The notes below the pieces were generated by a model, which searched no databases, had not been told where the DNA came from, and saw only the letters and a list, made by a program, of their open reading frames with translations. From Psammoneis japonica (lineage: Eukaryota): 64,000 nucleotides of DNA. The stretch covers positions 1-64,000 of the forward strand of contig QPGO01000305.1 of NCBI GenBank assembly GCA_008632985.1, written 5' to 3'. The position numbers were made by a program, and so were the translations under genes. Of the stretch, positions 1 to 64,000 are shown piece by piece (positions within the stretch are counted from its first letter, which is position 1; every line of letters starts with the position of its first letter).

Positions 1-804
1 GGAATTAGACGACGGACGAGTTGGGACCCGATTTGGTGGACAGGTGTTTGCAGTTGATTGGCATTTGTCGTTGGGCGATCGAGTTGGGCCGTGTCGACAT
101 CTTGCATGAAGTTTCCATTCTCTCTCAGTGTCAAGCCAACCCAAGGAAAGGGCACCTCGAAGCGTTGCACCATGTGTTCGCGCATGAAGAAGCATTTGAA
201 TGTCGGTCGCATTGGTTTTGACCCGAAGATGCCTGTGATTGACGAATCTGTTTTCAATTCCACTGCGGACTGGACGGAGTTTTACGGGGACGTTGAGGAG
301 GAGTTGCCGCCACGGATGCCCAAGCCCCGTGGCAACCCGGCAAACACATCTGCATTTGTTGACGCCAACCATGCGGGAAACGTTGTTGCTCGCAGATCAC
401 ACAGCGGGATTTTGACATTCGTGAACAATGCTCCGATCATTTGGTTTAGCAAGCGGCAGAACACAGTGGAGTCGGCGACGTTTGGCAGCGAATTGGTTGC
501 GATGCGCATTTGCAAGGAGTTGATTGTTGCTTTGCGTTACAAACTTCGCATGTTTGGAGCACCGATTGAAGGCCCTGCCAATGCATTTTGCGACAACCGC
601 GGCGTGGTGAAGAACGTCAGTGTTCCGGAATCTGTGTTGCACAAGAAGCATGATGCTGTCAACTGTCATTTGGTTCGTGAAGCAGTTGCGGCTGGGGTCA
701 TTCGCGTCAGGAAGGAGGACACGGACATGAATTTGGCAGATTTGTTTGCGAAGGTGACGACGGGAGAGCGGCATTGGAAACTTTGCTCTTGCATCTTTTG
801 GCAG
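1..804 (+). pseudogene. Ty1/Copia (CoDi-like, family A) pol 3' end: RT C-terminus plus RNase H, frameshifted and TpA-mutated
   Basis: Translation shows LQLIGICRWAIELGRVDI, FVDANHAGNVVARRSHSG, WFSKRQNTVESATFGSE, LRYKLRMFG, FCDNRGVV and NLADLFAK. Frameshift near 185. The probable original stop reads CAG at 802-804. Confidence 0.95.
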
Positions 805-910
805 AGCCCCGACACCAAGGCCAGACACCTGCAGCTTGCGCCCACGTGTTTCGGCCTCCCAAGCCAGCATTGCTGGTGGTCTGAATTTGGGTTTTGTGTT
901 TGCCTCTCTA

Positions 911-1125
911 TGAGAGGATGTTCTGGTTTGACGAATCGGCGTTGCACTTGCCGTTTCGCGGGGACCAAGTAAATCTGGGTGGAGCGGTCAGTCCCTGGTC
1001 CGGGGCTGATGCGCACGATCTGGTGGTTTGTTCTTTCCCACAATCTCACACGATCTAATCGACACAGGGTTCTCTTTGGTTTGTCACTGCTGCTCTTGGG
1101 CTCAAGGTGCTGTCATTGCCCCATG
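911..1125 (+). mobile_element. Polypurine tract plus start of Copia 3' LTR (truncated)
   Basis: TGAGAGGA (911-918) is followed by TG at 919. The same arrangement occurs at 12260-12251 (-). Shared motifs GACGAATCGG, ATCTAATC and CTCAAGGTG with the LTRs of the 12-19 kb element. Right end approximate. Confidence 0.7.
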
Positions 1126-1146
1126 CGGCTGCATCGGCATTCATTC

Positions 1147-1990
1147 GGCAATCGCTTGATCCGTTTGTTCAGCTCTCTGAAATCATCAACAAAGCGTGCC
1201 GTTAATCTTTCTTCGGCATGACAAATGATGGAGCTGCCCATTGGGATCGGTTGACGCATTTGAGAACACCGACACGTGCCAGGCGTTCTACTTCTTTACG
1301 CAGCGCAGCTTTGCACGCACGAGGCACTTCACACGGACGAGCGTGGCATGGTTCCACACCCTCCTTGAGTTGGACATGGCAGGGTTCTCCCTTCCATTCT
1401 CCTGATGTCCCATCAAACAAGGACTCATGGCGTTTCAACAGTGCCAAAAGGTCGTTTTGTTGAACTGCAGAAAGTCCCATTGCCCCTCGCGTCATGTCCT
1501 CGAGGCAGGCCGGCGCGTGCTCAGCGTCCAAAATGCGCGAAATCCGGTCGGTTTCCGAAGACAAGGCTTCTGGATCTTGAAGATAGAAGGAGGTTTCCAC
1601 CGCAGCATCTGCGTGCCTCATTGGCACTTCTCCATTGACNATGGCCACTCTGTCATCTGTTTGGAGAAGACAATGTCAATGCCTTGTGTCTCCAGAATGT
1701 CACGTCCAACAATCACATCGCACTTGCCCTGCTTTCTGTTGTGTGCGTGGACGGCATGCTCAAGTTCTGCAGCTTCGGACAACTCTGGCAACCGAAATTA
1801 ACGGTGCAGTCGTCAGACGTGCCAGACGAGCCTGCCACCGTAGCCCAGTTTGTCTCAGCCGTTGAATGGCTTCGCAGACGTTTGCAGTGTCGACTGTCGA
1901 GTGGAGCACTGCTGGCGCCACTGTCTGGCAGTGTCTTGATGGTTTGAGTCTTGCCCTTGCCATGTTCAGCATTCACAGCTGCAAACAGAT
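1147..1990 (-). pseudogene. Ty3/Gypsy pol fragment: aspartic protease plus RT N-terminus
   Basis: TLPDSGASS (L-DSGA protease motif), then LKEGVEPCHARPCEVP..LRKEVERL..GVL..SQWAAPSFVMPKKD, then after a frameshift ARFVDDFRELNKRIKR. Truncated near 1147. Confidence 0.9.
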
Positions 1991-2119
1991 TGGAGCAAGA
2001 TGAGTCTTTTTAACTCGTTTGCGGGATTGGCCTGCAACACGTGTACGATGGCAATTCAGTTGTTCATTCACACATTCATCCAATGCATTGAAACTGCCTG
2101 CATCGTGTCGGCCCCCTTC

Positions 2120-3194
2120 TCAGGCATCCGAGTCTTCGGAACCACTTAAGTTGAGGTCGCGGAAGTGATCAAGCTCCTCCTCGCGGGCCTTGCGCTTTTT
2201 CTGAGCGTTGGCAAAGTGCTCCTCGACCTTCGATCCGATGAGAGCATTAACATCTTCCTCATTCCGAGGTTTTGTGTTGGGCTTGCCGCCTCCGTTGTTG
2301 GAATGTCCAGTCTTGACACGTTTCACGTGGTGCTTGAGCTGACGGCAATCTTCCGCATCATGTCCACAGTAGTCCCGTGTGGCATGCACGACTTCTGGGT
2401 GTTCCGCTGGGTGTGATCAACGACTCAGGATTGTCCATTCTACGTCCCCGCTTGCGTGGAACCTCAGTGTGTTGGTCCTGGTTACCTTCGGTGAGCTCGA
2501 CCTGCTCGATGCGCTCGCAGAACTGTGCAAATTCGGCGACAGCATGCGCCAACGGGTCAAAATTCTGTAGCGTCATGAACTTCTGCCATGCGTTCGGCAC
2601 ACCGCACTCGAACATGTCGCACAGTTCGTCATTGGGTGATGGTGCCGGTGTTTCTCCATCCTCCGTCACGGGTGGAAACTGAGAGATGTGGCCGTTAATT
2701 TCAACAGCCCTCGCGACGCAGTCACGAGTGGAAACCTCTGCGGGCTTGCGCATGAAGCGCCGCAGACAACGCTTCTGCAATGGCACCGCCCCATGTGGGA
2801 AGATGCTTTCCTTTAGCTTCGCGACGCATGCTGTGCACGCAGCGTTGGTTTGGGATGCCTGCTTGTCAGCGGCATTGTCAAATGACATCAGAGCATCGCC
2901 CTGCAGTGGGTCACGCATGAGGGCAAATTTCACTGGCCCGGTCGTGATGTTTTGTCCTTCGTGCACGCGATCCACGTTGCACAGAAAGATTGGGAGTGTC
3001 TCGCATGTAGCCGTAGAAAGGTGCGGGATGCCCATCTCATGCGTTGGACTGTCCGGATCAGCAGGGTTGTTACGCAGCTTGAACGTCTGGCACTTGCCCT
3101 GCTGCAGCTCTTTCTTCTCCGGCCGTGCGAACGGAATCGGCGGCTCAATCCGCTTCTTCATGGTCGTTTTGAGATTTGTCGGTCCCACCAACAT
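2120..3194 (-). pseudogene. Gypsy gag, frameshifted
   Basis: PPIPF..FKLRNNPADPDSPTHE..LQGDAL..QKRCLRRFMRKP..GVPNAWQ..FCERIE, then a Cys/His knuckle-like CMPHG/CGHDAEDC. Lies upstream of the Gypsy PR-RT on the same strand. Confidence 0.8.
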
Positions 3195-3989
3195 TTCGTA
3201 GTTTCGTTTCTGTAGATTTCGTCACCTCGCACAACATGCGGGAGCAATGTTGCTGTGCCCTGTGCGTGCACAAGGCGCTGAAAAAGAAGATGTGTTGCGA
3301 CTTTGTCGTTGTGAAAATTGTGAGCTAGTTTAGAGCAGAGAAAATGGGATCGTGCGAATGGGGAATCTTGCCAAATCCCTGTTCGTTCGCATTTGGATCA
3401 CATCAAATCGATCGTGCGTTCGCATTGTGGATCGTGCGAATCACGCCATGCACAAGTGATGTCATCGTGTGGAATCACGCTGCCATCGTGGGCCAGACGA
3501 CGGGCCAGTGTGCTTCATGTGCGGATGCTCTCTTAGCATCCTTCTGGAATTGCCTGAGATCTAGAGCCACGCCCTCCTGTGGTCGTGCTTCCCAGGTGCG
3601 TGTCAACAACACTGCGTTGCCACGTGCAAGAGGCTTGTGCACGGTCTCGCCGTGTTGTCCAGTGGCGAGGCATGCTGCACTCGCCCTCACCATGAAGACC
3701 TTGGCATTGAAGTCTTCTCTGCAGACAGGCCCAAGTCCCGCTCTGGGCACTCAACTGTCAGCTTGTGCTCTGCACAAAACCCTTGGACACTGCTTGGCTC
3801 CAATTGGTGCCCAGAGGACTCAGCTGAAGAAAATCTTGCACAAGATGGCACAATGCACTGAATTCTGTTGAGAGCATCCAGGTTCCGACCTCAGAGACAA
3901 CCGCATTTTTCAACTTGGCAAAACGCCGTTGTCCGCGCCATTTTCATCGGGCAGGTTCTTGTTGTTCTGCAGCTCTGTCGTGACCAGCA

Positions 3990-4820
3990 AAATGGCCAAG
4001 GGCACAAAATCAAAAAGGACAAAAAATGTCTGTTGAGGGCGCCAAATCACAAAGGGCACAAACCAGGCAGGGGCACAAAATTGCTGAAGTCACAAAATGA
4101 CTGAGGGCGCAAAATGGCGGCTGAGGGCACAAAGCTGCCAAGGGCAAAAAATCAGAAAGGGTCCAAAATGGCAAAGGGCACAAAACCACAATGGCCAAAA
4201 ATTGCTGAAGGCGCAAAATCATGAGGGGCGCCAAATGCGGCTGAGGGCCCAAAACCAAAAAAGGCACAAAATGGACAAGGGCACACAGCCACAAAGTGCG
4301 CAAAATGGCAAGGGCACAAAACCACAAAAAGCACAAAATGCTCAAGGGCACAAAAAAAGGAAAGGGCGCAAAACAGCCAAGGGCACAAAAAGGTCAAGGG
4401 CACAAAGTCAAGAATTGCGCAACATGGCTGAGGGCCCAAAACCAAAAAAGGCACAAAATGGCCAAGGGCACAAAGTCACAAAGGGTGCAAAATGGCGAGG
4501 GCACAAAACCACAAAAAGCACAAAATGCTCAAGGGCACAAAAAAAGGAAAGGGCACAAAACAGCCGAGGGCACAAAAAGGTCAAGGGCACAAAGTCAAGA
4601 ATTGCGCAACATGGCTGAGGGCCCAAAACCAAAAAAGGCACAAAATGGCCAAGGGCACAAAGTCACAAAGGGCACAAAATGGCCAAGGGCACAAAGCCAC
4701 GAGATGGGGCAAAGTGCTCGAGGGCACAAAAAAAGGAAGGGCTCAAAACAGCCAAGGGCACAAAAAGGTCAAGGGTGCAAAGTCAAGAATTGCGCGACAT
4801 GACTGGGGGCACAAAGCCTC
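3990..4820 (+). repeat. Degenerate AGGGCACAAA(A) minisatellite with ~187-bp higher-order period
   Basis: Dozens of GGGCACAAA/GGGCGCAAA/GGGTGCAAA cores. The block AATTGCGCAACATGGCTGAGGGCCCAAAACC recurs at ~4413 and ~4600. Also present at 25540-26050 and 26665-27510. Confidence 0.9.
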
Positions 4821-4947
4821 AAAGGTGCCCCCAGCGCCAAACACTTGTGCCACAAATCTTGTTTGATCAGTGCCCTGCCAGTGGGCTGTGTCTCTTCAGT
4901 GCCCCCCTGCAACATGTGGCGAGATTGTTCTCGATTTAAAGACCACC

Positions 4948-11659: not shown

Positions 11660-12047
11660 CGTGTCTTTTCAAGGAAAACAAACATGTCTTTTCATGGAAA
11701 ACAAACATGTTTTTTCAAAGAAAACAAACATGTCGAACAAACATCTCATTTTTGAGAAAAACAAACATGTCATTTCAAGAAAAACAGACATGTCTTTTCA
11801 AGGAAAACAAACATGTCATTTCAAAGAAAACAAACATGTCTTTTCAAGGAAAACAAACATGTCTTTTCAAGGAAAACAAACATGTCATTTCAAGGAAAAC
11901 AAACATGTTGTCTTGACAAAAACAAACATGTTGTTTCAAGGAAAGAAAACGTGCAAGTTCTTTCAAGGAAAACAAACATGTCGTTTCAAGGAAAACAAAC
12001 ATGTCTTTTCAAGGAAAACAAACATGTCCTTTCAAGGAAAACAAACC
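11660..12047 (+). repeat. 23-bp satellite array
   Basis: Tandem monomers abutting the truncated 3' LTR. Confidence 0.95.
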
Positions 12048-12252
12048 GAACAAATCTTGATGCAATGAAAGGACAAGCACGACACCTTGAGTCCAAATGG
12101 AAAGTGGCGACACTGTCAATGCGAACCCAAACCTGATTAGATTGTGAGCGTGTCGCTGCAGCACCACTCGATCCATGTGTCTCAACCAACCACCAATTGC
12201 AACATGGCCCTCCATCCAGATTTGCAGCACCGATTCGTCTGAACATGTGACA
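12048..12252 (-). repeat. 3' LTR (truncated)
   Basis: Starts with TG right after the PPT TGAGAGGA and matches 19101-19278. Confidence 0.9.
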
Positions 12253-12367
12253 TCCTCTCACAGAGAGGCAAACCACAAGAACCCAAATTAAACCACCAGA
12301 CACACTGGCTTGGGAGGCGACGATGCATGGGCGCAAGCCACAGGCACCTGGCCTTGGTGTCGGGACA

Positions 12368-14110
12368 TTGCCAAAAAATGCACAAGCAAAGCTTCCATCA
12401 CCGCTCTCCTGCAACCACCTTTGCAAGTGGATCAGCCAAGTTTGTTTCCGTGTCCTCCTTGCCAACACAAACAATTCCCGCTGCGACCGCTTCTCACACA
12501 ACATGGTGGTTGATGGCATTGTGCTTCTTGTGCAAAACCGACTCAGGTGCACTTGCATTCTTTGCAACACCGCGATCATCACAAAAGATGCTTGCTGGTC
12601 CTTCAAGGGGAACCCCAAACATGCGAAGCTTGCAACGCAAGGCAACAATCAATTCCTTGCAAGTCCGCATGCAGCCAATTCACTTCCAAACATTGCTGAT
12701 TCCACCGCATTCTGCTGCTTGCTGAACCACACCACTGGCGCGTCATTGACGAATGTCAGAATCCCGCCATGCGACCTGCGAGTGACAACATTCCCTGCAT
12801 GGTTGGCGTCAACAAATGCACGGATGTTTGCCAGATCACCACGAGGCTTCGGTGCCCGTGGCGGCAGTTCCTCCTCGACATTCCCATAAAACTTGGTCCA
12901 GTCTGCATTCGAATTGAAAACAGATTCATCAATCACTGGTTCCTTTGGATCAAATCCGATGCGTCTGACGTTCTGGTGTTTCTTCACATGCGCAAATGCA
13001 CGGTGCAATGCCTCAAGATGTCCTTTCCTCGGATTGGCTTGACATTGAGGCAGGATTGAAACCTCATGCAAGACATCGATGTGACCCAACTCGATCGCCC
13101 AACGACAAATCCCTGTCAGCTGCAAATGCCTGTCCACCAAGCGGGGCCTAACTCGTCCATCACGTCCAGTTCCGGTTTGCATTTTGGGGGCAGTGGATCC
13201 TTTGCACTGTTCTTCAGAACCTCTCGTTGCCATCTTTATCCAACAGGCCTTCCACAGTCTCAATTGCCAATTTGACACATGACCTCGGTGAACTCGCCCA
13301 GATTGTGCACCCATCCTGAGTCTGAACCTTCTCAACATCAGCTCCAAGACAAACTTCTGGCTCTCCTTCGCTGCCGGGCTTCACGGTGTGGTGTTCACCT
13401 GCTGCAGCAACAATGGACTTCCCTTGATGGGAAATGATTGGCACATCATCGACATGAACCAAAAGCATTTCATGACACTCGTGCCCATCCTCACAAGTCA
13501 CCGCACGCAAGCAGACATCATCTGGGTCCGCTCTCGTTGATTTGAAGCCTGAGTCACGTAAGACCGATGACAGTGCAGACCTCCAAGAGTGTCCCGACCT
13601 CTTCAAGCCACACAATGCCCGAGCAACAACAAGTGCCTTTCCTTCACACTCGCCGCATTCCTTTCCGCCTTCAAACCACATCTTTTCTGTGCACGGTGCA
13701 TTGAGACAAGCATTCTCCAGATCAATTGCCGCAATGTCGACACCATTCAAGGCTGCTGACAAGAATCCAAGTCGCACACTTTCTCTGGAAACCACGCCAG
13801 AGCAAGTGATCGATGCCGGGGCCTCTGTCGTGTGTCCGCCAGCTACAAACCTTGCCTTTCTGGTGAAATCCATTTCAATGTTGAACACCATGTGGCACCT
13901 GATCTCCTGACAACCACGCAAAGTTGTGCTCTTGCCTTCCCGGATGACTTGAGGGGTTTCAGCTTGTGCTCGCGCCATGCCACCTTCACCTTTGCCATCT
14001 CCTCATTGATTGCACGAGCCCAACAATCTGTCCCCGTTTCCTGATCAATCCGCAAAGCATCCTCCGTGGACTTGGGTGATCAGATCCCAAACTTGTGAGT
14101 CGTGCGCCAG
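12368..14110 (-). pseudogene. Copia reverse transcriptase plus RNase H
   Basis: FTRKARFVAGGH, VVSRESVR, DLENACLNAPC, ARALCGLKRSG, LLVHVDD (13445-13456), FVDANHAGNVVTRRSH. Multiple frameshifts. Probable ex-stop CAA at 12368-12370. Confidence 0.95.
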
Positions 14111-16170
14111 TGCTTCTTCTTGACCTTGGATGCAATGCGATTCCGTTTGCGTGGGACATGTGTGGCCCACCAAGCAAAAGCAGGTTCCTCCGTCAACCTG
14201 TTTGCAACAGCATGCTCAGCAACTTCAATGGGGTTAGAGTCCTTTGGATCTTTGAGTTTGACCCAAGATGAGCTGCCATCCTTCCATCCAACCAATGACT
14301 TCCATCCTTTTGTTGTGATCGTCTTCTTCTCCTTCCCGTCAGCGGTTTGTGCGGTGCCATCAGCAATCGACACCGCATCGTCACTCCTCTCGTGGTCCTG
14401 CATCTCGTGCAAGATGGTGCGCTGGTTGCCCTCGCTGTCGACCTGAGCAAACATGTTCTCGGCAATGACATTGGCTGCACGCTCATCTGTGGTTCCGTCG
14501 GCACACTCCACTTCGCATTCGCGAGTGTCAAACAATGGGTTTTGATGCCAAGTCCCAATTGGACGCCCATCCTGTCCTCTTGCACGTTTCGTTACAACAC
14601 CACGTCGCTCGCTGTCGGTTCTGATGTCAAACACAAGTTCCATTCCCAGGTGTTGATCGATTGCCTGCTCGTCATCGTCGTCTGGTGCTCGCCGGGTGAC
14701 AGCATGTTGCCATGTTCCTCATCCTCTGGCGTGATGCCGCCCTCATGTTCCACACCGAGGTTGCCGTCAATTGCAAGATGTCCAACACGAATGCGGGTGC
14801 AGCTTCATCGCCCTTTAAGACAAAGTCAGTGTCGTCCAATCGCTTCTCCAGCTGCTCATTAAAGTTGTCGACCTCAACGCGAACATCCGGTTGCACCACA
14901 TCAGCCTGTGTCACGTGCTTGACCGATGTTTTGGAGACAATCTTCCCACTTTCCGCAATGATCCAACAGCACATGTCCGAGCCAACTTTGTGTGAGACAC
15001 CAAGCCACCGTCCAAGCCTTCGAGGATCGTCAGTTGCACTCAGCTTGTTGGGCCTGTCCCACCACCACACCACATCGTAGAAACCAAAATCCAAATGCTT
15101 GCCTGTCGATGCATTCCAGACGCAGGTGGGAATCCGTGTGACATTGGGCCCGCAGACTTCTGCGTGCGAACTCCGCAGTGAAATTGTGCAGCAATTAAAA
15201 TGTCAATGATCGCCAACAGAAAATGAGGCAATTTTGCGAACGCACAAACTCGCACATGATTGAAGTGCATCATTTTTTACTCAGCCAGTTGCATTCTTCA
15301 GACATTGAAGAATGCAACTGGCACACTGTTGTTTCTGCATGTTTGTTGTACAAAACGTCTGGGGCTTCACAAAACAGCGAGTCTGGACAATGTTTTTTAA
15401 ATGTCACATGTGGAAATCTGCGTGCGAAACATGCAACGGATGACAAAAATCATTGTTGTCACACGTCAGCACTGCGAGCTCCCACCCAGGGCTGGAACGC
15501 GTCTGTCTCTGGTGTCTGCCCAGTGACCTCTTCATGTCCAGTCCTCTTGTCCCTGCCTCTGGCCATGCGCGACACTAATTCCGACTTGCAAACAAGACCA
15601 AAATCCCATGACCGCTTTGGCACCTTCTTCTTCGTCATCCGCAGCCGCCAACGTTTGGCTGAGAAACCAATTTTGCACTCCGCTGCCTGGTTCTGGCTCT
15701 TCCAACCCTGCTCTGATGTTCTCAATTGCACTCTCACACGTCGTGCGTGTCTCACAAATTCGGCGCTCCTTCCAGTGAACTCTCCTGCCCCGCCCGACAT
15801 GGGACATTCTGGTGCACCCACGTCGTCTGTGAATTCAACAAGAGACAAACCTGCCTCCGACCTGGCAGTCATCGGCACAACCTTCACGAATTTGCCCTGA
15901 GCACAGACATTGGCACACGTGTCACTGAGCAAAGACTTCACCTTGGACATCAAAGTGTCCACAAACCATGTTCCTTTCAGACGCTTCCGATGCAAGTCAA
16001 GATGATCCACCCTCACTCTTCGTGACATCGGCTGGGTCGCCGTTCACACGCCATGCTGAGTTGTTGCATTGAGAGCATCTTTTGCCGTTTCTAAACCGAC
16101 ACTCCATTTTCGGGCCAGCTCTTCAGCGTCAACCTTCGAGTGCCGATCCTTGCTGTGTAAATCTTTGACT
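14111..16170 (-). pseudogene. Copia integrase and INT-RT linker, interrupted by a MITE
   Basis: ELARKWSVGLETAK..TTQHGV, WFVDTL, QNQAAE, EEVTGQTPE|LDFGFYDVVWWWD, LGRWLGVSHKVGSDMC, TTKGWK.LVGWKDGSSSW. Confidence 0.9.
15108..15503. mobile_element. ~396-bp TIR MITE inserted in Copia integrase
   Basis: Termini GATGCATTCCAG../..CTGGAACGCGTC. TSD TGTC at 15104-15107 and 15504-15507. Removing it restores the frame TPETGKHLDFGFYD. Confidence 0.9.
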
Positions 16171-16399
16171 GCCCTCTGCCTCTTGTCCACGTCATCGCGA
16201 CATGTGCAAGCCACGTTCACTGACCTGATGAGCCTGTGGCAAAACGATTGAAGTTGATGGATGGGAGACACAGACGACAGTTGCATTTCGACCTCGCCCC
16301 AGCGTGCTGCTTGGGACTTTGCCTTCTCGCTCCTCAATTCCGAGACCTGTTCTTGTCGCATGCCAGAGGTCAATGATCGAATGGCGAGCATCTCCGCCT

Positions 16400-16900
16400 G
16401 CTCTCTAGTGCGCTCTGGCAAGCCCATGTCCATCTGTGCTGGATCCCATGCATCACCTGTCAACAGCATGACCAGCAAGTTCTGTGCTTCCCAATCCGTC
16501 AGAACACGAGACTTGAAAGACACAATTGTCCCCGTGGTGTTGAAAGGGATGAAAGCTTCGTCAGCTTCAGTGCCAAATCCGTTTCGGGTGTCGCAAGGGT
16601 TGTCGTGTGCGGGTGTGTTGTGTGCATGGAGTTGGTTGGGATTCAAAAGTGAGTGTTCCATGTCGGTCCCAAACCAGAGCATTTGATCACCAACCAGCAA
16701 ATGTTCACGAGTCGTTTCCGGATCTGTCCATGCGGTGCAACAATGTGCCACAGGAATCTGTTTGATCGGCTCACAAGAGTCCAGAAATGGATGTACCTCG
16801 CACACTTCATTTGTCATCTCCATGAGCTTCCAGTTCACTTCAGCGCAACAAGTGTCCGCATGAGCATCACATTCATTTCGAGCGACAAACCCAGGCATCG
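16400..16900 (-). pseudogene. Copia aspartic protease region
   Basis: ARNECDAHADTCCAEVNW..LWFG..HSLLNPNQL, the CoDi-type D-x-HADT motif. Confidence 0.85.
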
Positions 16901-17099
16901 TCAAATTTGTCATCTGTGCAGAACTCGTCGATCGGATCACACGTTTTGATGTCACGGCAATGTGCCTCTTTGTTGCCTTTCCTTTGAAACGAGACATTGG
17001 GTGGGGTTCAGTCAACAGCAAGAAGAGTGGCACAAGCAAAAACGACAAGTGTGCCAAATGCGCCAACACTCCAGCAGCTGTTGCCACCCCAAGGAGTCA

Positions 17100-18638
17100 G
17101 GTGGAACCATTGCAGGCTCCCCAACCGAAGGTGCGTCCATTGCATCCACCGCGATCCCGGTCAGCGCCGCGACCACGCCCGCTGCTCCTTTGCTCCTGAT
17201 CCTGTTGTTGGGTTTGGCCTTGGCCATCTTGACAGACTTGGGCTTCAGCCACATGCCTGCCACCCCCATTGCGTCCTTGTCGACCTGCGGGAGACCCACG
17301 GCCACCACCGCGTCCATGACCCATTCGTTCGCAAGCTTGGAACACGCAGCTCATGCCTCCATTGTGCTGTGACTTTTCCCATTCTTGAGCGCTAAAGCTC
17401 CTTGTGGGGTCGGATGCATCGACTCCATTGATCATCGTAGTGTGGTCGCCACCTCTGCCTTCACGGCCACCACCACGTCCGCGTCCACCCCCACGTCCAA
17501 ATCTTCCTCCACGACGCGACCTCGATAAAAACCGCGGCCACCGCCGCCACCACGGCTCATTTCAGAAATCTTGCGCTTCGAGCAATGCCGGGCTTCCAAC
17601 TGAGCACCTGCATGCAAACGAGAGACTTCGGATGAGAAATGAGCACATGCCCCCGCGAAGTCATGAGGGTGCTGACTGCTGATGACAGCCGTTGCTGCAA
17701 TGAGACGAGTGTCATCCGTTCGGATCCCTTTCAGAAGAATGTCAACTTTCTGTCATTCAGATTTGCGGTCATCTGGTGATTTGTTCAAAGCAGTGAAAGC
17801 ACTGGCAAGTTTCTCATTGAACTTTTCGAATGGGAGCGATCCTTCCTTTTTATGAAACAAGGTTTCAACAGTTGCCGCCGCCAGATGGATGCGCTTGCTC
17901 AACTCGCCCTGTCCATTGCAATGGTCAACCCATGCATTGAATGCTCCATGTCCATCTTCTGTCGCGCCAAACGGTTCGATCCATGCCCATCCTGCCATGT
18001 CGACCAAGTGTTCCTTCAACACACGGCAAACGCTGCGGTTGTCCTCGTCACATGCGGCGCCATTCAATGGCATCTGGTGCGTGCGCTGTTGTTGAGCATC
18101 CGTGAATGCAGCCGGAGCTGGCATTGTCCTTACGACATGGCAAAGGGGTTCTTTCAACACGCCAAATTTCTGTGCCAAGAGATTCAGGAAAGCATCTTTG
18201 CACACATCGAAGTCATCGGGCTCAAACTTTACGAGACCGCTTGCCAACACGTCCGAATCCGTGCGCTCCTTTTCAACACGCCTGCCATTCCGGGCCGCAG
18301 CCACAGCTGCCACATTGAAGTCTGCCGCAACCAATGGCTGATTCCATTTGAGCAAATCCTGGCACCACCATGCATCACCTGTGAGTTCTTGATCTGAATG
18401 GTCCCAAGAGCCACACGTCCGTCGGCCACCGTGCGACAAGATGCCCTCTGCGCCATGTCTTCCACATCGTGGTCACTCTCCATCACTGTGATGTTTTCCA
18501 AAGTCGCAACCCTTTGTGGAAGACCAACCTCGCCCTTGCGTTCTGGTCAGCAACACCACAAACTTGCAAAACTGCATCAATGTCAGCTGCCGCGGCCAAC
18601 GCCGCAAGTGCTGCTGCTGGTGCTGCCGCTGCTGCCAT
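17100..18638 (-). pseudogene. Copia gag
   Basis: Start MAAAAAPAAA (ATG at 18638). FLNLLAQKFGVLKEPL, DNRSVCRVLK, HCNGQGELSKR, then an RGG-rich segment. Confidence 0.8.
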
Positions 18639-19100
18639 CCTGCAACAGAGAAAGGGCACAAAGGTCCTGCACCGGGAACATGTGGCTGTGAGTCTGCATG
18701 GTCATGATGGCTGCACTTTCTCTGTGTTGTGATGACAGGGTTCAAAAAGCCACCTGACGTCAGGGTGATCAGTCCTGTGTCGTTCATGTCAACCGACATT
18801 GTTGAGCACATGCTCGGGCATGTCGCCCAATGCCGCAGTCCCTTCACACCCGCTGCGTGTGTGAGGACAGTGACCATCTTTGCGAGCATTGCCGTTGCAA
18901 GCTGTTTTTGTGGACATCACAACAAGCAACACGAGATGCATCATCGTGCGCATCAACCCGAATTCTGACGCATCACGTGCAGTTCAGCGCCGTTTCTGCA
19001 GCTGCACATTCCATGCAAACAACACAACAAACAATCGTCCATGACAAGTTGCACTCGAAACCATTTTGCTCTGTCTTTTTCGTCTTGGCTCTGACAAAGT

Positions 19101-19278
19101 GAACAAATCTCGATGCAATGAAAGGACAAGAACGACACCTTGAGTCCAAATGGAAAGTGGCAACACTGTCAATGCGAGCCCAAACCTGATTAGATTGTGA
19201 GAGTGTTGCTGCAGCACCACTCGATCCATGTGTCTCAACCAATCACCAATTGCAACATGGCCCTCCATCCAGATTTGC
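19101..19278 (-). repeat. 5' LTR segment matching the 3' LTR (probably extends toward ~18900)
   Basis: Direct repeat of 12048-12225. Confidence 0.85.
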
Positions 19279-19282
19279 TCGA

Positions 19283-46499: not shown

Positions 46500-49400
46500 C
46501 TGGTGTGCTGTCACAAACACAGGCAGTTTGTGTGCTGTTGGCGATTGGTTCACTGTTGCTTGATCAGCGGCCCCAATGGCGCAACATCTCACAATTCTAG
46601 AACCTGCTGATGCTGCTCAACACTCTGTCTTGTCTTGCACCCAATTCCAGCCATCATGGTGGCATTTGGTCACTTTGTCAGAGCCAGCGCGCTGTGATGT
46701 TCATCGCCTGGAACGGGCATTGCAAACGGTGTGACGGCATCGTTGCGATCAATTGATTTTTGTGGCAAGCGCCATGTTGGTCCCATGGTTGCTCGCGCAA
46801 TTGCTGAGTCCTTTGTGTGTGTCAACATTCATGGACATGAACAACATGCTCTTGGAGACCAGAGCTGTGATCCGTCAGACATGACGTCATCACACGAAAT
46901 GTTTGATCATGTGGATGGAACATGTGGCTGAGACACGCAAACATTCGTGATGAAGACAACACAATGATTTGTGCACTGTCTGTCATTTGACCACACACAT
47001 CTCATCAATCAAAGTGCATCATCAAATTGTTTGGACGCTGCACATGTGGATGCATGTCTGTTGGACATTGTCGCTTGGGGGCAACACTGCCTGCTCATGG
47101 GTTCGCCAAGCAGAAACCGCCAAATCGGCATGAGAGCCATGCATTTTTCTCACTTTCCTCCACTCACACAAGTGGATGCTCACGCATCGAAATGCGAACA
47201 ACTGCTGATGCGCCATGGCCGCTGCTGCAGCCTTTGCCGCCTGTCTTGCGCGTTGTGGGCACAGTGCACAGACGCGCACCCACATGGCCCGTCAAGGCTT
47301 CACTGCTGTCGAGGACCTGGAGCAGGTCCCTTTGACTGAAATTGCCGACATGACGAAGGGCACCATGAAAAGCGTGGGTGCCGCTGCCAGCCCTCAAGTC
47401 CACTTTCCACACCTGGCGAATCGAAAGCTCAAGGCACTGCACGCATGGATTGACTGCCGCAGAGCCCGGAACCAACAGCCGACCGCTGCTCTCTTCGCTG
47501 GCGACGTTGTTGGAACATGGGCGGCACGTCTGATGGAACTGGAGCAATTCAAGTCCGCCGACTCGGACGACGAATTGGCTGCCAAAACGGCCGTGGAGCT
47601 CAAGAACCCACACAACTGGCCCACCTTCCAAGAGTTGCTGGAGACCGAACTGCGCCACCACCGCAGCACCGTCGCCGAAGTTCCCCTCATCTGTCCAGCT
47701 GGGGAACATGAGGAAGTCACCGCCGAGATGTTGGCTGCCACCTGCGCTGCCATTGACGAGGACCTCATTGCTGCCACCCGCCTTGCGGGCGCTCAGCATG
47801 CGCAGGACAGGCAATGACTGCATGATCTCCTGAAGAAGCCAGTGATGGGGGGCCCGGATGGGCTTTTGTCAAACCTTCCAATCGCAGCCGCGATGGTCGC
47901 ACTGCTTTCTTTGCACTTGAGAGGCAGGCGGAAGGATCAGCTGCGCCACCACCCAAAAGAGCCGTGCTCATGCACAGATTGCTGCCGCGAAGTGCACCGG
48001 ATGGGGTCGATTTGCATTTGACCAGCACATTCAGCATCATCAAAAGGCTCACAACGACTTGTCTGAGCTTGATGAACTGGTGGCCGAGACCAAGAAGGTC
48101 TCTGACTTTCTGAAGGGCATCTCCGACCGGAGTGCTCTTGACGGTCCCGAGCGAGAGCAAGTCCAAAAGCTCCGCGACGCCAAGAAGGCCAAAAAGAAAT
48201 GCAAAGCTGCTGCTGTGTCCTTGGAAGCTGAGTCGGTCGATGCCGAAACTCGCGCTGCAAAGAAAGCGGCTGTTGCCGAGCCTGCTGCTCAACCTGCTGA
48301 TGCACCGAAAGACTCCGACGAGCCTGTGAACCTGCCGCCAATGCAGGCACCCAGTTTGGATGCAGCGCACATGAGAAACCTCAGAATGAGGAATGAACAG
48401 TTGCGCCAGCACTGAAAGGCACAGAGCCAAATGTCGCTAAACCTGCTGGCACTGTTTGTTTGTCTGGGTGATTCTCAAAGGATGTGCGTGTCTCTTTGTC
48501 ATCTGCTGGAAATTCAGATGACAAAGCCACCACTGATTTAGACTCGCACGCTGACACGTGTGCTGTTGGGTCCAATTTTGTGATGTGCTCTGACATCGAC
48601 AGAACTGTCGTGGTGCACCCCCACTCCGAAGAGCACGCGCCAATGGAAAACACTCCTGTTTGCATGGCTGCTGCCGTGTGGGTTGATCCAACTGATGGAC
48701 AACCGTGCTTGCTGCCAGTCCACGAGGCCATGTTTTTTGGGGACAAGATGACCAACACCCTTCTGTGCCCCAACCAACTGCAAGCAAATGGGCTGATTGT
48801 CCACGACACCCCTTGCCAGTTTGATCCGACTGGCGCGCACTCCATTGCTTTCCCTGACTTGAAGATCAGGGTGCCACTGCGAACAAGAGGCGTTGCTTCT
48901 GTCTTTGATTCACACGAGCCAACAAATGAGGATCTGGAGAACCTCCCCTGGCTGGAACTCACATCACCCCCGAGATGGGAGCCTTCTGCTGATGCCATGG
49001 CGCAAAAGGAGGAAGCGCGTGCATGTGCCAGTGTGCGCCAAGGATCAGCAAAGTCGGGCAGATGGTCGACGACAATGAATGTGACCAGGTGTGTTGCTTC
49101 CATTCATTCACACCAAATGTCCTGTCATGACGAGAGCGTCATTGTGGACACTGATGATGACAATTCACTGCATTGTCACATGGTTGCTCAGGTGAATGTC
49201 TCCCACAACAACACCAAGGGAGACGGGCCACACGACCGGCATGACCTGGATGTCCACCTGGATTGTGCCGAGCGGAAACGGGTGCATGCACTGTCGACCT
49301 TGAGTCGTGCATCAACTGTCACGCCCGAGACACTCTCTAAAAGGTGGAACATTGGCCTGACGGCTGCTGAGAACACCATCAGAGTGATGACCCAGGCAGG

Positions 49401-49975
49401 GGTCCGCAATGTCTGCACACCATCCGAACGGAAAGTCCGGAAGAAAGCCCCTTGGCTCAAGTTCCCTGCTGTCAAGGGACGACTCTACTCCGGCCAGATG
49501 TCTTCAAAGGTCAAATTGACACATGGCAAGATGGGAGGAAGCGCACTTGCCAACGGAAGAGGGTGTGACAGGTTCCATCCTTGGAAGAGGAAACAGGACC
49601 ACCCAGATGCCGTCATGTCATTTGTGCATGACGTTGGCACACCGCAGGTCCTTGTGTCGGATGGCGCACCGAAATGGCGGAAGGCCAGACCAAGGAGATC
49701 TGCAAGGAATGCAGGATGCACCAGGAGGTGTCCACTCCATGCAGCCCCTGGCAGAACCTGGCCGAGGCATCCATTCGTGAGTTGAAGAAAAGAGTCCGTG
49801 TGACTCTGCGCTGGACTGGCGCTCACAGACGACTTTGGTCCCACAGTGCCAAATGGACATGTGACATCCGACGCATGATTGCAGCCAGTGTGTCAGACAT
49901 GGGAGGACGAGTCCCAGAAGAGGAGGTGACGGGTTCAACACCCGACATCTCTTCCCTCTCTCTCTTTGATTGGTG
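46500..49975 (+). mobile_element. 5' half of a degenerate Ty1/Copia (family B): leader, gag, protease, integrase
   Basis: gag from ATG 47215 (MAAAAAFAACLARCG..), VAETKKVSDFLKGI, PR TDLDSHADTCAVGSNF (~48530), INT VTPETLSKRWNIGL..PQVLVSDGA..SPWQNLAEASIRELK..EEVTGSTPDIS..FDW. Cut by satellite at 49975. Confidence 0.93.
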
Positions 49976-53029: not shown

Positions 53030-55437
53030 CAACATGTTTGTTTTCTTTGAAACGACACACTTGTTTTCCTTGAAACAACATGTTTGTTTTCCTTGAAACG
53101 ACATGTTTGTTTTTCTTGAAAAGACACATTTGTTTTCCTTGAAACGACATGTTTGTTTTCTCTGAAATGGCATGTTTGTTTTCCTTGAAACGACATGTTT
53201 GTTTTCCTTGAAACCACATGTTTGTTTTCATTGAAATGACACATTTGTTTTCCTTGAAACGACATGTTTGTTTTCATTGAAAAGACATGTTTGTTTTCTT
53301 TGAAATGAAATGTTTGTTTTCATTGAAAAGACACGTTTGTTTTCCTTGAAACAACACATTTGTTTTCCTTGAAACAACATGTTTGTTTTCCTTGAAATGA
53401 CACGTTTGTTTTCCTTGAAACGACATGTTTGTTTTTCTTCAAACGACATGTTTGTTTTCCTTGAAACCACATGTTCGTTTTCCTTGAAACAACACGTTTG
53501 TTTTCCTTGAAAAGACATGTTTGTTTTCCTTGAAACGACATGTTTGTTTTTCTTTAAACGACATGTTTGTTTTCCTTGAAACCACATGTTCATTTTCCTT
53601 GAAATGACACATTTGTTTTCCTTGAAAAGACATGTTTGTTTTCTTTGAAACGACATGTTTGTTTTTTTTTGAAATGACATGTTTTTTTTTCCTTGAAAAG
53701 ACATGTTTGTTTTCTCTGAAACCACATGTTTGTTTTCCCTGAAACGACACATTTGTTTTCCTTGAAAAGACATGTTTGTTTTCCTTGAAAAAACATGTTT
53801 GTTTTCCTCGAAAAGACATGTTTGTTTTCCTTGAAACGACATGTTTGTTTTCCCTGAAACGACATGTTTGGTTTCTTTGAAACCACATGTTTGTTTTTCT
53901 TGAAAACACATGTTTGATTTCCTTGAAATGACATGTTTGTTTTCCTTGAAACGACATGTTTGTTTTCCTTGAAAAGACATGTTTGTTTTCCTTGAAAAGA
54001 CATGTTTGTTTTCCGTGAAACGACATGTCTGATTTCCTTGAAACCACATGTTTGTTTTCCTTGAAAACACATGTTTGTTTTCCTTGAAACGACATGTTTG
54101 TTTTCCTTGAAATGACACGTTTGTTTTCCCTGAAACGACATGTTTGTTTTCCTTGAAAACACATGTTTGTTTTCCTTGAAACCACATGTTTGTTTTCTTT
54201 GAAACAACATGTTTGTTTGTGTTCCTTGAAAAGACATGTTTGTTTTCCTTGAAATGACATGTTTGTTTTCTTTAAAAAGAAGTGTTTGTTTTCTTTGAAA
54301 AGACATGTTTGTTTTCCTTGAAACCACATGTTTGTTTTTCTTGAAATGACACATTTGTTTTCCTTGAAGAGACATGTTTGTTTTCTTTGAAATGACATGT
54401 TTGTTTTTCTTGAAAATGCACGTTTGTTTTCCTTGAAAAGACATGATTGTTTTCCCTGAAACCACATGTTTGTTTTCCCTGAAATGACAAATTTGTTTTC
54501 CTTGAAAAGACATGTTTGTTTTCTTTGAAAAAACATGTTTGTTTTCCTTGAAAAGACATGTTTTTTTTTCTTGAAAAGGACATGTTTGTTTTCCCTGAAA
54601 CAACATGTTTGTTTTCCTTGAAACCACGTGTTTGTTTTCTTTGAAAACAAACTTGAAAACAAACATGTCGTTTCAAGGAAAACAAACATGTCGTTTCATG
54701 GAAAACAAACGTGTTGTTTCAAGGAAAACAAACATGTCATTTCAAGGAAAACAAACACGTGATTTCAAGGAAAACAAACGTGTGTTTTCAAGGAAAACAA
54801 AGGTGTCTTTTCAAGGAAAGCAAACATGTCATTTCAAGAAAAACAATCATGTCGTTTCAAGGAAAACAAACATGTGTTTTCAAGAAAAACAAACATGTGG
54901 TTTCAAGGAAAACAAACATGTCGTTTCATGGAAAACAAGCATGTCATTTCAAGGAAAACAAACATGTCTTTTCAAGGAAAACAAACATGTTGTCTCAAGG
55001 AAAACAAACATGTCTTTTCAAGGAAAACAAATGTGTGTTTCCAAGGAAAACAAGACGGGTTCCAGTCCCAGGTGGGACTCCGTGTGACATTGGGCCCGCA
55101 GAATTCTGCGTGCAAGCTCCGCAGCAAATTTGTGCTGCAATGAAAATGTGAATGATCGCCAACAGAAAAAGAGGCAATTTTACGAACGCATCTCCTCCTT
55201 CGCACTTGCAGCACATCATTGACAGTTTGCCCGGGCATGTTCTTCAGGGAAAACAAACATGTCGTTTCACGGAAAACAAACACGTCTTTTCAAGAAAAAC
55301 AAACACGTCTTTTCAAGGAAAACAAATGTGTCTTTTCAAGGAAAACAAACCTGTCATTTCAGGGAAAACAAACATGTGGTTTCAAGGAAAACAAACATGT
55401 CTTTTCAAGGAAAACAAACATGTCTTTTCAAGGAAAA
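53030..55437. repeat. 23-bp satellite, reverse to ~54640 then forward; half-MITE at 55055-55245
   Basis: Orientation switch at ..GTTTGTTTTCTTTGAAAACAAAC.. Confidence 0.93.
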
Positions 55438-59490: not shown

Positions 59491-60117
59491 CCTGATCAAA
59501 GGGTGAGTGTGCACTTTACATGCATTTTTGGGTGCACACTCGCCTTTCGATTTTCGAAACGATCAAAATTGAAGGAGTCAATTGTGCTGAACTGCGCAGA
59601 AAATCGGCCTCTTGCGTGATGAAAAGCAGAGCACCTGGAGCTGGAACAGGCCAGCAACAATGAGAGGAGCACTGCTGTTCGACAGTGCAGCCGTCATTTG
59701 GGTCGTGTTGACACAGCCAGCCACTCCATTTTTCTCCACAACATTGAACAAATTGTTGTCAGCAACCACGCTGCTGCAGTGCATCCTTGCTCTGAAGAGT
59801 GCGCGCCAATGAGGAATGTCCCCATTTGCGTGGCTGCTGCCATGTGGGTTGATCCAGCCAATGGACAGCCATGCCCACTGCCAGCCCATGAGGCTGTGTT
59901 TTTCAGGGAAAGAATGACTGACACCCTGCTGTGCCCCAGCCAACTGTGAGCAAGTGAGCTGACTGTCCACGACACCCCTCGCCAGTTTGACCCCAACAGC
60001 GCGCACTCTGTTGTTTTCCCTGACATAAAAATCAGGGTGCTTTTGCGTGCGCAAGGTGAGTTGAGTGCCAGAGCGGGACTTGGGCCTGTCTGCAGAGAAG
60101 ACTTCAATGTCAAGGTC

Positions 60118-63100
60118 AAACAAACATGTCTTGAAAACAAACATGTCTTTTCAAGGAAAACAAACATGTCATTTCAAGGAAAACAAACATGTCGCTTCAA
60201 GGGAAAAAAATGTCTTTTCAAGGAAAACAAATGCGGCGTTTCAAGGAAAACAAACATGTGGTTTCAATGAAAACAACCGTGTCTTTTCTGGGAAAACAAG
60301 TGTGTCGTTTCAAGGAAAACAAACACGTCTTTTCAAGGAAAACAAACACTTCGTTTCAAGGAAAACAAACATGTCTTTTCAAAAAAAACAAACGTGTCGT
60401 TTCAAGGAAAACAAACATGTCTTTTCAAGGAAAACAAACGTGTCATTTCAAAGAAAACAAACATGTGGTTTCAAGGAAAACAAAGATGTCTTTTCAAGGA
60501 AAACAAGCATGTCTTTTCAAGGAAAACAAATGTGTCATTTCAAGAAAAACAATCGCGTCGTTTCAAGGAAAACAAACATGTCCTTTCAGGGAAAACAAAC
60601 ATGTCTTTTCAATGAAAACAAACATGTCATTTCAAGGAAAACAAACATGTCTTGAAAACAAACATGTCTTTTCAAGGAAAACAAACATGTCGTTTCAAGG
60701 GGGAAAAAAATGTCTTTTCAAGGACAACAAACATGTTGTTTCAAGGAAAACAAACATGTGTTTTCAAGGAAAACGTTGGATTGGACATTGGATGTTTGCC
60801 GCTTGAGACAGCACAGAGCCAACAGAGACAAAATTTGCCAGGGGCCCTGCTCAAGATGGCGCCTGCCACTTAAGACTGGATGTTGAGCACTCGAGACACT
60901 GCAGTTCACCACTTGAGACGATGACAGACGCGTTCCAGGTCCAGGTGGGACCTCGCACTGCTGAACTGTGACATTGACAGTTTTTTGAATCACGTCGCAT
61001 GTTGCGCACGTAGATTTCTGCGTGATTTTTTTGACACATTTTGTCATTTTATGGTGCATTCATTGAGCGATCCGTCCAACAACTTTTGACATTTTTTGTT
61101 GCAGCGCGATTCTACAATGTCTTGAGAGTCGCGCAGGGCAGGTGCACCTGCAAAAACGTCGAGTGGCAAGAGGCACAATTGCACCACAAACTTGGCAGCT
61201 CATTTGATGTTGAAGACAAACACACCCATTGGTCAAATTCTTGCACTGCGGAGCTCGCACATGGAATTCTGTGGGCCCAATGTCACACGGAGTCCCATCC
61301 AGGACTGGAACCCATCGTTTTCAAGTGAGACAAATGTGTGGTTTCAAGGAAAACAAACACGCAAACAAACAAACATGTCAACGGGTTCCAGCCCCAGGTG
61401 GGACTTTTTGTGACATTTGCCCCGTGGAATTCTGCGAGCTCTGCAGCTCGCACTCTGGTTGATGGACACATTTGTCTTCAACATGAAAAAAACGGCCAAG
61501 TTTGTGGCACATCTGTCCATGCAGGTGCTCAAAGTTTTGGACAATGTGCCTGCCCTGCGCCATTCTCAAGACACTTGAGAATGGCGCAGAAGAAAAAAAT
61601 GTCAAAAGTTGGTCAATGCATGGCCTGACAATTGCACTGTAAAATCACACAAAATTTCACCACAATCACCCAGAAATGTGTGTGCGCAACATACGACGCG
61701 ATTCAAAAAACTGTCAATGTCACATTTCAGCAGTGCAAGGTCCCACCTGGACCTGGAGCGCGTCTGTCATTTCAAGGAAAACAAACATGTCTTTTGATGG
61801 AAAACAAACATGTCTTTTGATGGAAAACAAACATGTTGTTTCAAGGAAAACAAACGTGTTGTTTCAAGGAAAACAAACACGTCTTTTCAAGGAAAACAAA
61901 CATGTCGTTTCAAGGAAAACAAACGTGTGGTTTCAAAAAAAAACAAACATGTCTTTTCAAGGAGAGAGAATGGCGTAGAAGAAAAAAATGTCAAAAGTTG
62001 ATCAATGCATGGCCTGACAATTGCACTGTAAAATCACACAAAATTTCACCACAGTCATGCAGAAATGTGCGTGCGCGACACACGATGCGATTCAAAAAGC
62101 TGTCGATGTCACAGTTCAGCAGTGCGAGGTCCCACCTAGACCTGGGATGCATCTGTCGTTTCAAGGAAAACAAATGTGTGTTTTCAAGGAAAACAAACAT
62201 GTCGTTTCAAGGAAAACAAACACGCTTTTCCAAATCCGTTTTTTGCCAAACATGTCTTTTCAGAGAAAACAAACGTGTCATTTCAAGAAAAACAAACATG
62301 TGGTTTTAAGGAAAACAAATGTGTCATTTCAAGGAAAACAAACATGTCTTTTCAAGGAAAACAAACGTGTCGTTTCAAGGAAAACAAATGTGTCTTTTCA
62401 AGGAAAACAAACATGTCTTTTCAATGAAAACAAACACGTCATTTCAAGGAAAACAAACATGTTTTTTCAAGGAAAACAAACATGTCTTGAAAACAAACAT
62501 GTCGTTTCAAGGAAAACAAACACGTGTTTTCAGTGAAAACAAACATGTCGTTTCAAGGAAAACAAACATGTCATTTCAAGGAAAACAAACATGTCGTTTC
62601 AAGGAAAACAAACATGTGTTTTCAAGGAAAACAAACATGTGGTTTCAAGGAAAACAAACATGTCATTTCAAGGAAAACAAACATGTGTTTTCAAGGAAAA
62701 CAAACATGTGGTTTCAAGGAAAACAGACATGTGGTTTCAAGGAAAACAGACATGTCGTTTCAGGGAAAACAAACATGTCATTTCAAGGAAAACAAACATG
62801 TCTTTTCAAGGAAAACAAACATGTCATTTCAAGGAAATCAAACATGCGTTTTCAAGAAAAACAAACATGTGGTTTCAAAGAAACCAAACATGTCGTTTCA
62901 GGGAAACCAAACATGTCGTTTCAAGGAAAACAAACATGTCTTTTCAAGGAAAACAAACATGTTTTTTCACAGAAAACAAACATGTCTTTTCAAGGAAAAC
63001 AAATGTGTCGTTTCAGGGAAAACAAACATGTGGTTTCAGAGAAAACAAACATGTCTTTTCAAGGAAAACAAACATGTCGTTTCAAAAAAAAACAAACATG

Positions 63101-63615
63101 TCGTTTCAAAGAAAATGAACATGTCTTTTCAAGGAAAACAAACGTGTCATTTCAAAGAAAACGAACATGTGGTTTCAAGGAAAACAAACATGTCGTTTAA
63201 AGAAAAACAAACATGTCATTTCAAGGAAAACAAACATGTCTTTTCAAGAAAAACAAACGTGTCGTTTCAAGGAAAATGAACATGTGGTTTCAAGGAAAAC
63301 AAACATGTCGTTTGAAGAAAAACAAACATGTCGTTTCAAGGAAAACAAACGTGTCATTTCAAGGAAAACAAACCTGTTGTTTCAAGGAAAACAAACATGT
63401 GGTTTCAAGGAAATCAAACATGTCTTTTTAATGAAAACAAACATGTCGTTTCAAGGAAAACAAACGTGTCATTTTAATGAAAACAAACATGTGGTTTCAA
63501 GGAAATCAATGTTTGTTTTCCTTGAAACGACACGTTTGTTTTCCTTGAAACAACAGGTTTGTTTTCTTTGAAACGACATGTTGTTTTTTTTTGAAACGAC
63601 ATGTTTGTTTTTCTT
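60118..63615 (+). repeat. 23-bp satellite with MITE pair (60927-61316, 61380-61764) and partial MITE (61965-62153); flips at ~63508
   Basis: Same block as 36400-38460. Confidence 0.92.
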
Positions 63616-64000
63616 GCGCCAAATGCACAAATTTCCAAATGATGGGAATCGAACCCGCGCGGAGCACCTGGAGCTGGAACAGGCCTGCTGTGAAAAGATC
63701 AAGATGTCGTCTCCAGCACCACCGGCAAAGAAGAGAAAGAAAAATGAGGCTGTTGAGCCAATGAGCCTGAGACTTCAGGCAGTGTTGAAGAGAACGGGCA
63801 TGCAGGCAGCGCATGGTGCGCTGAAACCAGAAGTGGAGAAGGTGGCTGGAAATGATCTCTTTCCACAGGTTAAGTTTCTCAGTCCGTCAGAATTGGCAAG
63901 CAACGGGAGCGTCTCAATGTTTGTCAAGAAACAGATTGCTGGTGGCAACACGGACACTTCAAATTGGTCAGGAACCTGAGAGGAATGGGCAAAAAAGGCG
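63615..64000 (+). repeat. Module M copy running off the window
   Basis: Matches 31903-32290. Confidence 0.93.

Follow-up and report, generated by a model that had tools for sequence, protein, structure and literature searches.

Near-absence of TpA across a 64-kb repeat block points to a probable TpA-specific mutator acting on both DNA strands

The 64,000-nucleotide stretch analysed here, positions 1 to 64,000 of contig QPGO01000305.1 (assembly GCA_008632985.1) and called the window throughout, raises the question of what can remove nearly every TpA dinucleotide from a long block of satellite and retrotransposon DNA. Where base composition alone would give 4,591 TpA, we counted 160, an observed/expected ratio (O/E) of 0.035 and a loss of about 96% across the window, whereas 200 mononucleotide shuffles gave a mean of 4,595 (standard deviation 50, minimum 4,478). 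The depletion is unbroken, with an O/E of 0.01-0.18 in each of the 32 bins of 2 kb and of at most 0.20 in each of the 64 bins of 1 kb. CA and TG are over-represented (O/E 1.55 and 1.61, respectively) and CG is under-represented (0.67), and the combined surplus of CA and TG (+4,516) roughly balances the deficit of TA (-4,431) plus that of CG (-1,129). An earlier note, made from the sequence alone, had described this near-absence and near-saturation correctly; its hand count of 5 TA in 1-960 was exact, and its "about 4" in 46500-49975 should read 5. Its statement that every sequence class is affected is not supported, as the window is silent repeat DNA throughout. The answer that we consider probable is that a mutator specific for TpA and targeted to chromatin saturated these repeats, and that TA-free copies multiplied later; the mutator would most likely be a deaminase of adenine in DNA.

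The direction of change was read from two copies of a Copia-type long terminal repeat (LTR) retrotransposon, for which the features used are as follows.

1-64000, no strand: continuous TpA-depleted, CpA/TpG-enriched block, defined by O/E in 1-kb bins
1-946, plus strand: Copia copy 1, 3' part of pol (RNase H region), from alignment to copy 2 and protein relatives
12041-19278, minus strand: Copia copy 2, a degenerate LTR retrotransposon within 23-bp satellite, from its LTRs and an RVT_2 match
12041-12225, minus strand: LTR of copy 2 (3' LTR in element orientation), a direct repeat
19094-19278, minus strand: LTR of copy 2 (5' LTR in element orientation), a direct repeat
13217-14002, minus strand: reverse-transcriptase (RT) frame of copy 2, matching Pfam RVT_2 at E 5e-10
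15067-15503, no strand: short high-copy element, a 435-bp insertion in copy 2, bypassed by contigs of the read run X1 (described below)

Copy 2 is flanked by 185-nt direct repeats of 95% identity, and its pol frames, which contain the RVT_2 match, are broken. Copy 1 is 76% identical to copy 2 and belongs to a family with 2,410 protein relatives at E<=1e-5, with identities of up to 76%; a single Copia relative comes with an organism name, the diatom Ditylum brightwellii (63% identity). For the RT frame of copy 2 we built an alignment with 12 relatives (49-63% identical, taken from 120 listed of 209 found) and treated as conserved the 146 columns in which at least 80% of the 12 carry the same residue. 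Copy 2 retains 111 of these residues and has changed 35. All nine conserved tyrosines are lost, six to cysteine (TGY), three to histidine (CAY) and none to arginine, and 17 of the 35 changed columns regain the conserved residue once a CA, TG or CG overlapping the codon is reset to TA. No tyrosine remains in the 262 residues of the frame, and cysteine plus histidine make up 8.8%, against medians of 3.7% tyrosine and 4.2% cysteine plus histidine in the 240 relatives listed, none of which is free of tyrosine. The catalytic YVDD motif reads HVDD (13445-13456, minus strand), and ALCGLK (13601-13618), NACLNA (13697-13714) and TCSG (13796-13807) stand where the relatives carry tyrosine. In copy 1, FGAP, NAFCDN and VVARR (382-597, plus strand) and NCH replace FGVP, NVFCDN, VVTRR and NYH of the relatives, and the aligned row reads FAK where they have TK. 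Copy 1 is less saturated, with five TA left and two tyrosines retained, both in TTAC. By reading of the alignment, a conserved histidine of the relatives is arginine (CAT to CGT) in copy 2. The earlier note had listed these altered motifs, apart from NCH, together with two others, NCHQ (21060-21071, minus strand) and LPDSGA (1914-1931, minus strand), whose strings are present but coincide with no protein family match, and it had spoken of Gypsy elements, which we could not confirm, RVT_2 of Copia type being the only such match.

Judged from these codons, the process is TA>TG or TA>CA on either strand, with one strike per site. Both outcomes had been anticipated, together with CG as a third; CG was not confirmed as a common outcome, and the lack of arginine at the nine tyrosine sites indicates that no double strike is seen there. 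The strands are affected about equally, as had also been proposed: the six cysteines stand against three histidines, the CA/TG differences between the two Copia copies (below) divide 13 to 12 by direction, and the choice of strand is random. A compositional habit of the whole genome, or selection against TA without targeting, would agree with the fact that TA-normal sequence occurs nowhere in the window. However, a TA-free genome could not encode tyrosine, which the RT relatives retain, and selection cannot explain the destruction of YVDD, so that of all the alternatives this one has the least to commend it. The window gives a picture of an end state, in which blocks of satellite and retrotransposon can encode neither tyrosine nor two of the three stop codons. 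Its stop triplets number 82 TAA, 43 TAG and 1,234 TGA, and because TAA and TAG are so scarce the long open frames found in all six phases are uninformative.

The earlier note had known of no named system of this kind, but the signature has been reported to arise de novo by Mettrop et al. (bioRxiv 10.64898/2026.01.13.699255), whose preprint describes TpA-only A/T>G/C hypermutation of viruses integrated in the genome of Bigelowiella natans. In 15 mutation-accumulation lines, 231 of 302 nuclear mutations fell in integrated giant-virus and virophage regions; 230 of the 231 were either A>G or T>C, those biased towards GC all lying at TpA. The rate, observed in some lines only, was about 6e-7 per site per generation, about 1000 times background; the main target was present as a single copy and the events were chromosomal. 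The same source reports 124 clusters of TpA-depleted 1-kb windows and 324 low-TpA coding sequences, whose TpA frequency averages 0.0018 and among which RT, endonuclease-RT and DDE domains are over-represented, with no Copia-type RT named among the depleted domains in the text accessible, and proposes, without proof, an ADAT2-like protein as the enzyme (10.64898/2026.01.13.699255). This preprint was the sole paper that our literature search found for the TpA-loss signature; no paper joining "diatom", "TpA" and "transposable elements" was found.

The window resembles the B. natans case in the restriction to TA>TG and TA>CA on both strands, in the loss of TpA and gain of CpA plus TpG, and in the depletion of transposon-type genes (TpA frequency 0.0025 in the window and 0.0018 in the low-TpA coding sequences). 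The clusters of the preprint are runs of at least three consecutive 1-kb intervals with Rho(TpA)<=0.43 plus Rho(CpA+TpG)>=1.52. In the window, Rho(TpA) is at most 0.43 in 64 of 64 intervals and Rho(CpA+TpG), by a pooled formula that may deviate slightly from that of the preprint, is additionally at least 1.52 in 51 of 64, giving seven clusters in runs of 5-11 intervals. The two cases differ in that the window is nearly saturated over 64 kb (O/E 0.035, against 0.45 for the nucleocytoplasmic large DNA virus region of B. natans), that its targets are satellite and Copia (RVT_2) rather than viral inserts, and that it is known from sequence alone, its loss mostly predating the latest copying, whereas live mutations were recorded in B. 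natans. On the published description, the window is an extreme case of the kind first reported in 2026. AC:GT microsatellites are reported to be unusually frequent in B. natans, as well as in a second rhizarian (PMC13746701), and a TpA mutator would convert (TA)n into repeats of CA/TG type. The window contained no run of at least five units of AC, GT, AT, AG or CG and no mixed dinucleotide run of at least eight units, and the idea of such ghosts of (TA)n is unsupported here.

In the mechanism that we propose, a TpA-specific transition process would act on silent repeat DNA and turn TA into TG or CA through an A-to-G change on one or the other strand, the strand being picked at random, and after a single strike the site would no longer be a target. 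As the most likely chemistry, a TadA/ADAT2-like enzyme, directed to chromatin that is silenced or foreign, would deaminate adenine in DNA to inosine. The target of tRNA adenosine deaminases, A34, always follows U33, which fits the T-A motif. The enzyme, its targeting and a function in defence are inferred; the process itself is of the kind observed to arise de novo in viral DNA integrated in B. natans. Since TA is its own reverse complement, an adenine and a thymine target are inseparable by sequence, and the designation "adenine-directed" in the earlier note therefore claimed too much. The thymine of TpA might instead be oxidised or hypermodified (e.g. to 5-hydroxymethyl- or 5-formyl-uracil by a dioxygenase of TET/JBP type), mispair with G and yield T>C. 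5-Formyluracil does pair with G, and the 5-hydroxymethyluracil of dinoflagellates is reported to favour TpA and TpC; we know of no thymine modification with this signature. Read on the opposite strand, a T>C change at TpA is an A>G change at TpA, so that all of our sequence results fit either chemistry equally well and the window offers no means of telling them apart. The only experimental paper proposes a deaminase, also without proof (10.64898/2026.01.13.699255), and we consider thymine chemistry unlikely, although it is the strongest of the competing explanations.

We found that the two Copia lineages had resolved their lost TA sites separately. In 944 aligned columns of copies 1 and 2 there are 25 CA/TG doublets, that is, 25 of the 65 adjacent double mismatches, the next commonest type occurring six times. 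Two-sided CpG decay would yield about six of the 25, as estimated from CG, CA and TG counts, and the remaining doublets imply about 50 former TA sites (5.3% of positions) resolved at random in each lineage. The lineages differ at about half of these sites and were, on this comparison, struck independently. Younger copies behave differently. Eight young paralogue pairs have 53 CA/TG doublets in 17,731 dinucleotide columns, where independent resolution at the same site density would give an estimated 470 or so, and the LTRs of copy 2 have seven single differences in about 178 bases, three of them CpG to TpG/CpA, and no CA/TG doublet. The divergence between the LTRs of copy 1 and copy 2 was too high for comparison at the level of sites. 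The concordance of paralogues and LTRs places most TA loss before the last duplications and before the reverse transcription from which the LTRs of copy 2 arose; this element was already TA-free at LTR formation, although its RT motif is destroyed. It also indicates that duplication was not the trigger of most of the loss; with this, and with the single-copy state of the main target in B. natans, the term "repeat-targeted" used in the earlier note is not supported. In the proposed mechanism, most loss would have come before the latest duplications, and TA-free copies would then have multiplied, with CpG decay alongside.

Shared outcomes in the LTRs of copy 2 and different outcomes in separate lineages would also arise if editing came before LTR duplication, that is, if retrotransposon RNA or cDNA were hyper-edited by an ADAR-like or ADAT-like enzyme and insertions arrived TA-free. 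Yet the satellite (O/E 0.018, all arrays pooled) and other non-retro repeats are equally depleted, the two strands are equally affected in cysteine and histidine outcomes and in doublets, and the resident copy carries private TA>TG changes (below). In addition, the B. natans events were chromosomal (10.64898/2026.01.13.699255), and editing before integration seems to us quite improbable. Both APOBEC3, which acts on retroviral cDNA, and ADAR, which acts on double-stranded RNA, resemble the process in being deaminases that hypermutate nucleic acid of mobile elements or viruses. A 5' U is favoured by ADAR. When ADAR-type editing fixed by retrotransposition was tested, the LTRs were concordant, yet outcomes were strand-balanced and non-retro repeats depleted; ADAR acts on RNA, whereas in the window both DNA strands are affected, satellite included. 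APOBEC3 gives strand-biased G>A, and editing of this type was ruled out by A>G and T>C on both strands and by the effect on the satellite.

Singleton changes in two repeat families of the window (34636-36952/55243-57558/31119-33402/51792-53350 and 43175-45895/59246-61957/35440-38131) were polarised by majority rule, with small numbers and on the assumption of star-like copy histories. A>G occurred at 4 of 26 TpA, 39 of 2278 CpA, 20 of 2960 ApA and 7 of 1490 GpA, and C>T at 38 of 635 CpG, the latter showing that ordinary CpG decay is under way. The TA-creating change, C>T at CpA, was found at 4 of 2256 sites, against 5 of 1047 CpC and 11 of 1094 CpT. A>G at TpA together with this deficit suggests that new TA is removed again, and we regard these as signs that low-level activity may continue. 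A>G is 2.5-3.6 times as frequent at CpA as at ApA or GpA. This excess, like the CAT-to-CGT change in copy 2, may mean that the mutator has CpA as a second, weaker target, or it may represent CpG decay that was polarised wrongly. Decay of CpG by deamination of 5-methylcytosine is thus a second, ordinary process in the window, to which the CG O/E of 0.67 also belongs, but it is unable to remove TA or to turn tyrosine codons into cysteine or histidine codons. Repeat-induced point mutation (RIP) of fungi likewise hypermutates a particular dinucleotide, inactivates DNA that is repeated or foreign and can be recognised afterwards by a scar in base composition. However, RIP is triggered by duplication, whereas the young duplicates of the window share their outcomes, and by turning CpA into TpA it creates the dinucleotide that is destroyed here; the TpA O/E of 0.035 and the C>T frequency at CpA rule it out. 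That neither CpG deamination nor RIP could produce the observed changes had been stated correctly beforehand.

The 160 surviving TA are unevenly placed, with 56 in TTAA, 5 in TAT and 6 in ATA. Outside the satellite, A lies two bases upstream of the adenine in 11 of 246 strand contexts (background 21%) and T in 107 of 246 (background 32%), a bias that may reflect a flank preference of the mutator. Within the satellite, 32 of 37 TA are in TTAA, many of which look like new C>T changes in a conserved TTCAA core. Any candidate enzyme would have to comply with the rules of one strike per site, random strand, and poor survival of ATA with better survival of TTAA. The least depleted part of the window is 1000-4000, which adjoins the end of Copia copy 1, with an O/E of 0.12-0.20 per bin; no protein family was recognised in it. 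Satellite monomers (650 units) were rejected as evidence of polarity: positions 16-17 are mostly CA with some CG or TG, but arrays homogenise and give no polarising information, and they were left unused.

The stretch 12050-19300 was compared with X1, a single public run available as Logan contigs (141 Mb, short-read-like, platform not on record). Of the 31-letter words sampled from the stretch, 42% occur in X1, and 4,014 of its contigs lie on this stretch, 607 of them at >=99% identity, 1,008 at 95-99%, 1,460 at 90-95% and 939 below 90%; the listed contig depths are 33-72. The runs X2 and X3, described as the "same sample", contain next to none of the words, and no RNA run was listed as containing the stretch. 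Among the best 40 of 788 differences between the window and the X1 copies, the window has TG or CA against CG in the other copies 14 times, TG against TA three times and CA against TA once; two of these rows, together with a change at the neighbouring base, form full CA/TG doublets at 12345-6 and 13387-8. The X1 contigs are unanimous for TA at 14246 and 18383, where the TA>TG changes are private to the resident copy of the window. One insert occurs in X1 in two versions, at depths of 70 and 72, that differ by TA versus CA at two sites, and TA-bearing loose ends adjoin copies of the short element at 15067-15503. This element retains five TA, more than its surroundings, and is of very high copy number, the summed X1 depth being 73,000-104,000 over 14954-15437 versus about 2,000 elsewhere on the stretch; several X1 contigs leave out exactly 15067-15503.

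These data bear on the possibility that a modified base at TpA was systematically miscalled in sequencing or assembly. The depletion is extreme and uniform, as such an artefact would make it, and X1, with its platform not on record, may be tied to the assembly. However, the outcomes are fixed, inherited between paralogues and LTRs and different between old lineages, exact words occur in X1 at high depth, the TA and CA versions of one insert coexist at nearly equal depth, and ordinary CpG decay is superimposed. Outcomes that are fixed, inherited and copy-specific, and the presence in one run of relatives with and without TA, speak against both a base-calling artefact, which is unlikely (for sequencing and assembly as a whole we would say highly so), and a genome-wide habit, which the TA carried by the loose ends beside the short element also contradicts.

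Several points weigh against the proposed TpA mutator, although we still favour it. X1 may be related to, rather than independent of, the source of the assembly, and that single-copy genes keep their TA is drawn only from this run, in which a few loose ends and variants of inserts carry TA. The enzyme, the modified base and a de novo event are not visible from the window, adenine and thymine chemistry yield identical outcomes, and mis-polarised CpG decay may account for the surplus of A>G at CpA. In-place mutation of these particular copies is excluded for most sites, so that the mechanism needs an extra step, the spreading of TA-free copies. Discordant lineages with concordant LTRs in copy 2 would, on the bolder reading given below, mean either that retroelements were struck before or at integration, or that TA-free, mutator-proof elements keep spreading.

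The identity of the host affects how widely the system is distributed. The window contains no host gene. The balance tips slightly towards a host other than B. natans, because a Copia relative occurs in Ditylum brightwellii and because the accessible text of the B. natans preprint names no Copia-type RT; we take this, and the indication of a diatom, as a hint only. If the host lies outside the chlorarachniophytes, the system would be widespread. A bolder reading, which we offer tentatively and think rather less probable than its opposite, is that the host is a marine protist, perhaps a diatom, and that the TpA mutator is a widespread eukaryotic genome defence, combined with elements struck before or at integration or with the spread of mutator-proof, TA-free elements. 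If a natural activity does convert A to G in chromosomal DNA wherever a certain two-letter motif occurs, it would represent a genome defence of a class new to eukaryotes and the natural counterpart of engineered adenine base editors.

The window also contains the following features.

19301-21036, no strand: 23-bp satellite array (Tandem Repeats Finder)
30336-31873, 38328-39831, 42017-43172, 53032-55053 and 62154-63616, no strand: further large 23-bp satellite arrays (Tandem Repeats Finder)
3988-4815, 25536-26050 and 26662-27508, no strand: 17-bp and 187-bp A-rich tandem repeat (Tandem Repeats Finder)
36309-39788 and 60133-63615, no strand: segmental duplicates of 91% identity (self-BLAST)
3676-6110/26352-28825, 43175-45895/59246-61957 and 34636-36952/55243-57558: other direct duplicate pairs (self-BLAST)
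31119-33402/36953-34687: inverted duplicate pair (self-BLAST)
24445-25416, plus strand: open frame with a helicase-associated (HA) domain match (Pfam PF03457, E 7e-8)
33403-33764, no strand: assembly gap of 362 N
1640: single N

Pfam scans of 184 open frames (18+84+82) reached the family cut-off for RVT_2 and HA only. None of these frames matched a Gypsy, integrase or viral domain, and no candidate gene for the mutator was recognised among them, in agreement with the earlier statement that the enzyme is not encoded in the window; a few low-complexity "antifreeze" matches were rejected as originating from the satellite. A metagenome scan with the satellite unit gave two single matches, both in TA-normal, GC-rich contigs and attributed to chance, and a scan of viral_contigs with the Copia alignment gave 29 pattern matches, none of which was confirmed. 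In the HA frame, the match spans 46 residues and no homologue was found at E<=1e-3 (proteins of 178-567 residues); the frame probably represents the decayed fragment of a gene, lying within the repeats. The 23-bp satellite forms about 24 arrays totalling 18.4 kb, and the segmental duplications, direct and inverted, are 91-96% identical.

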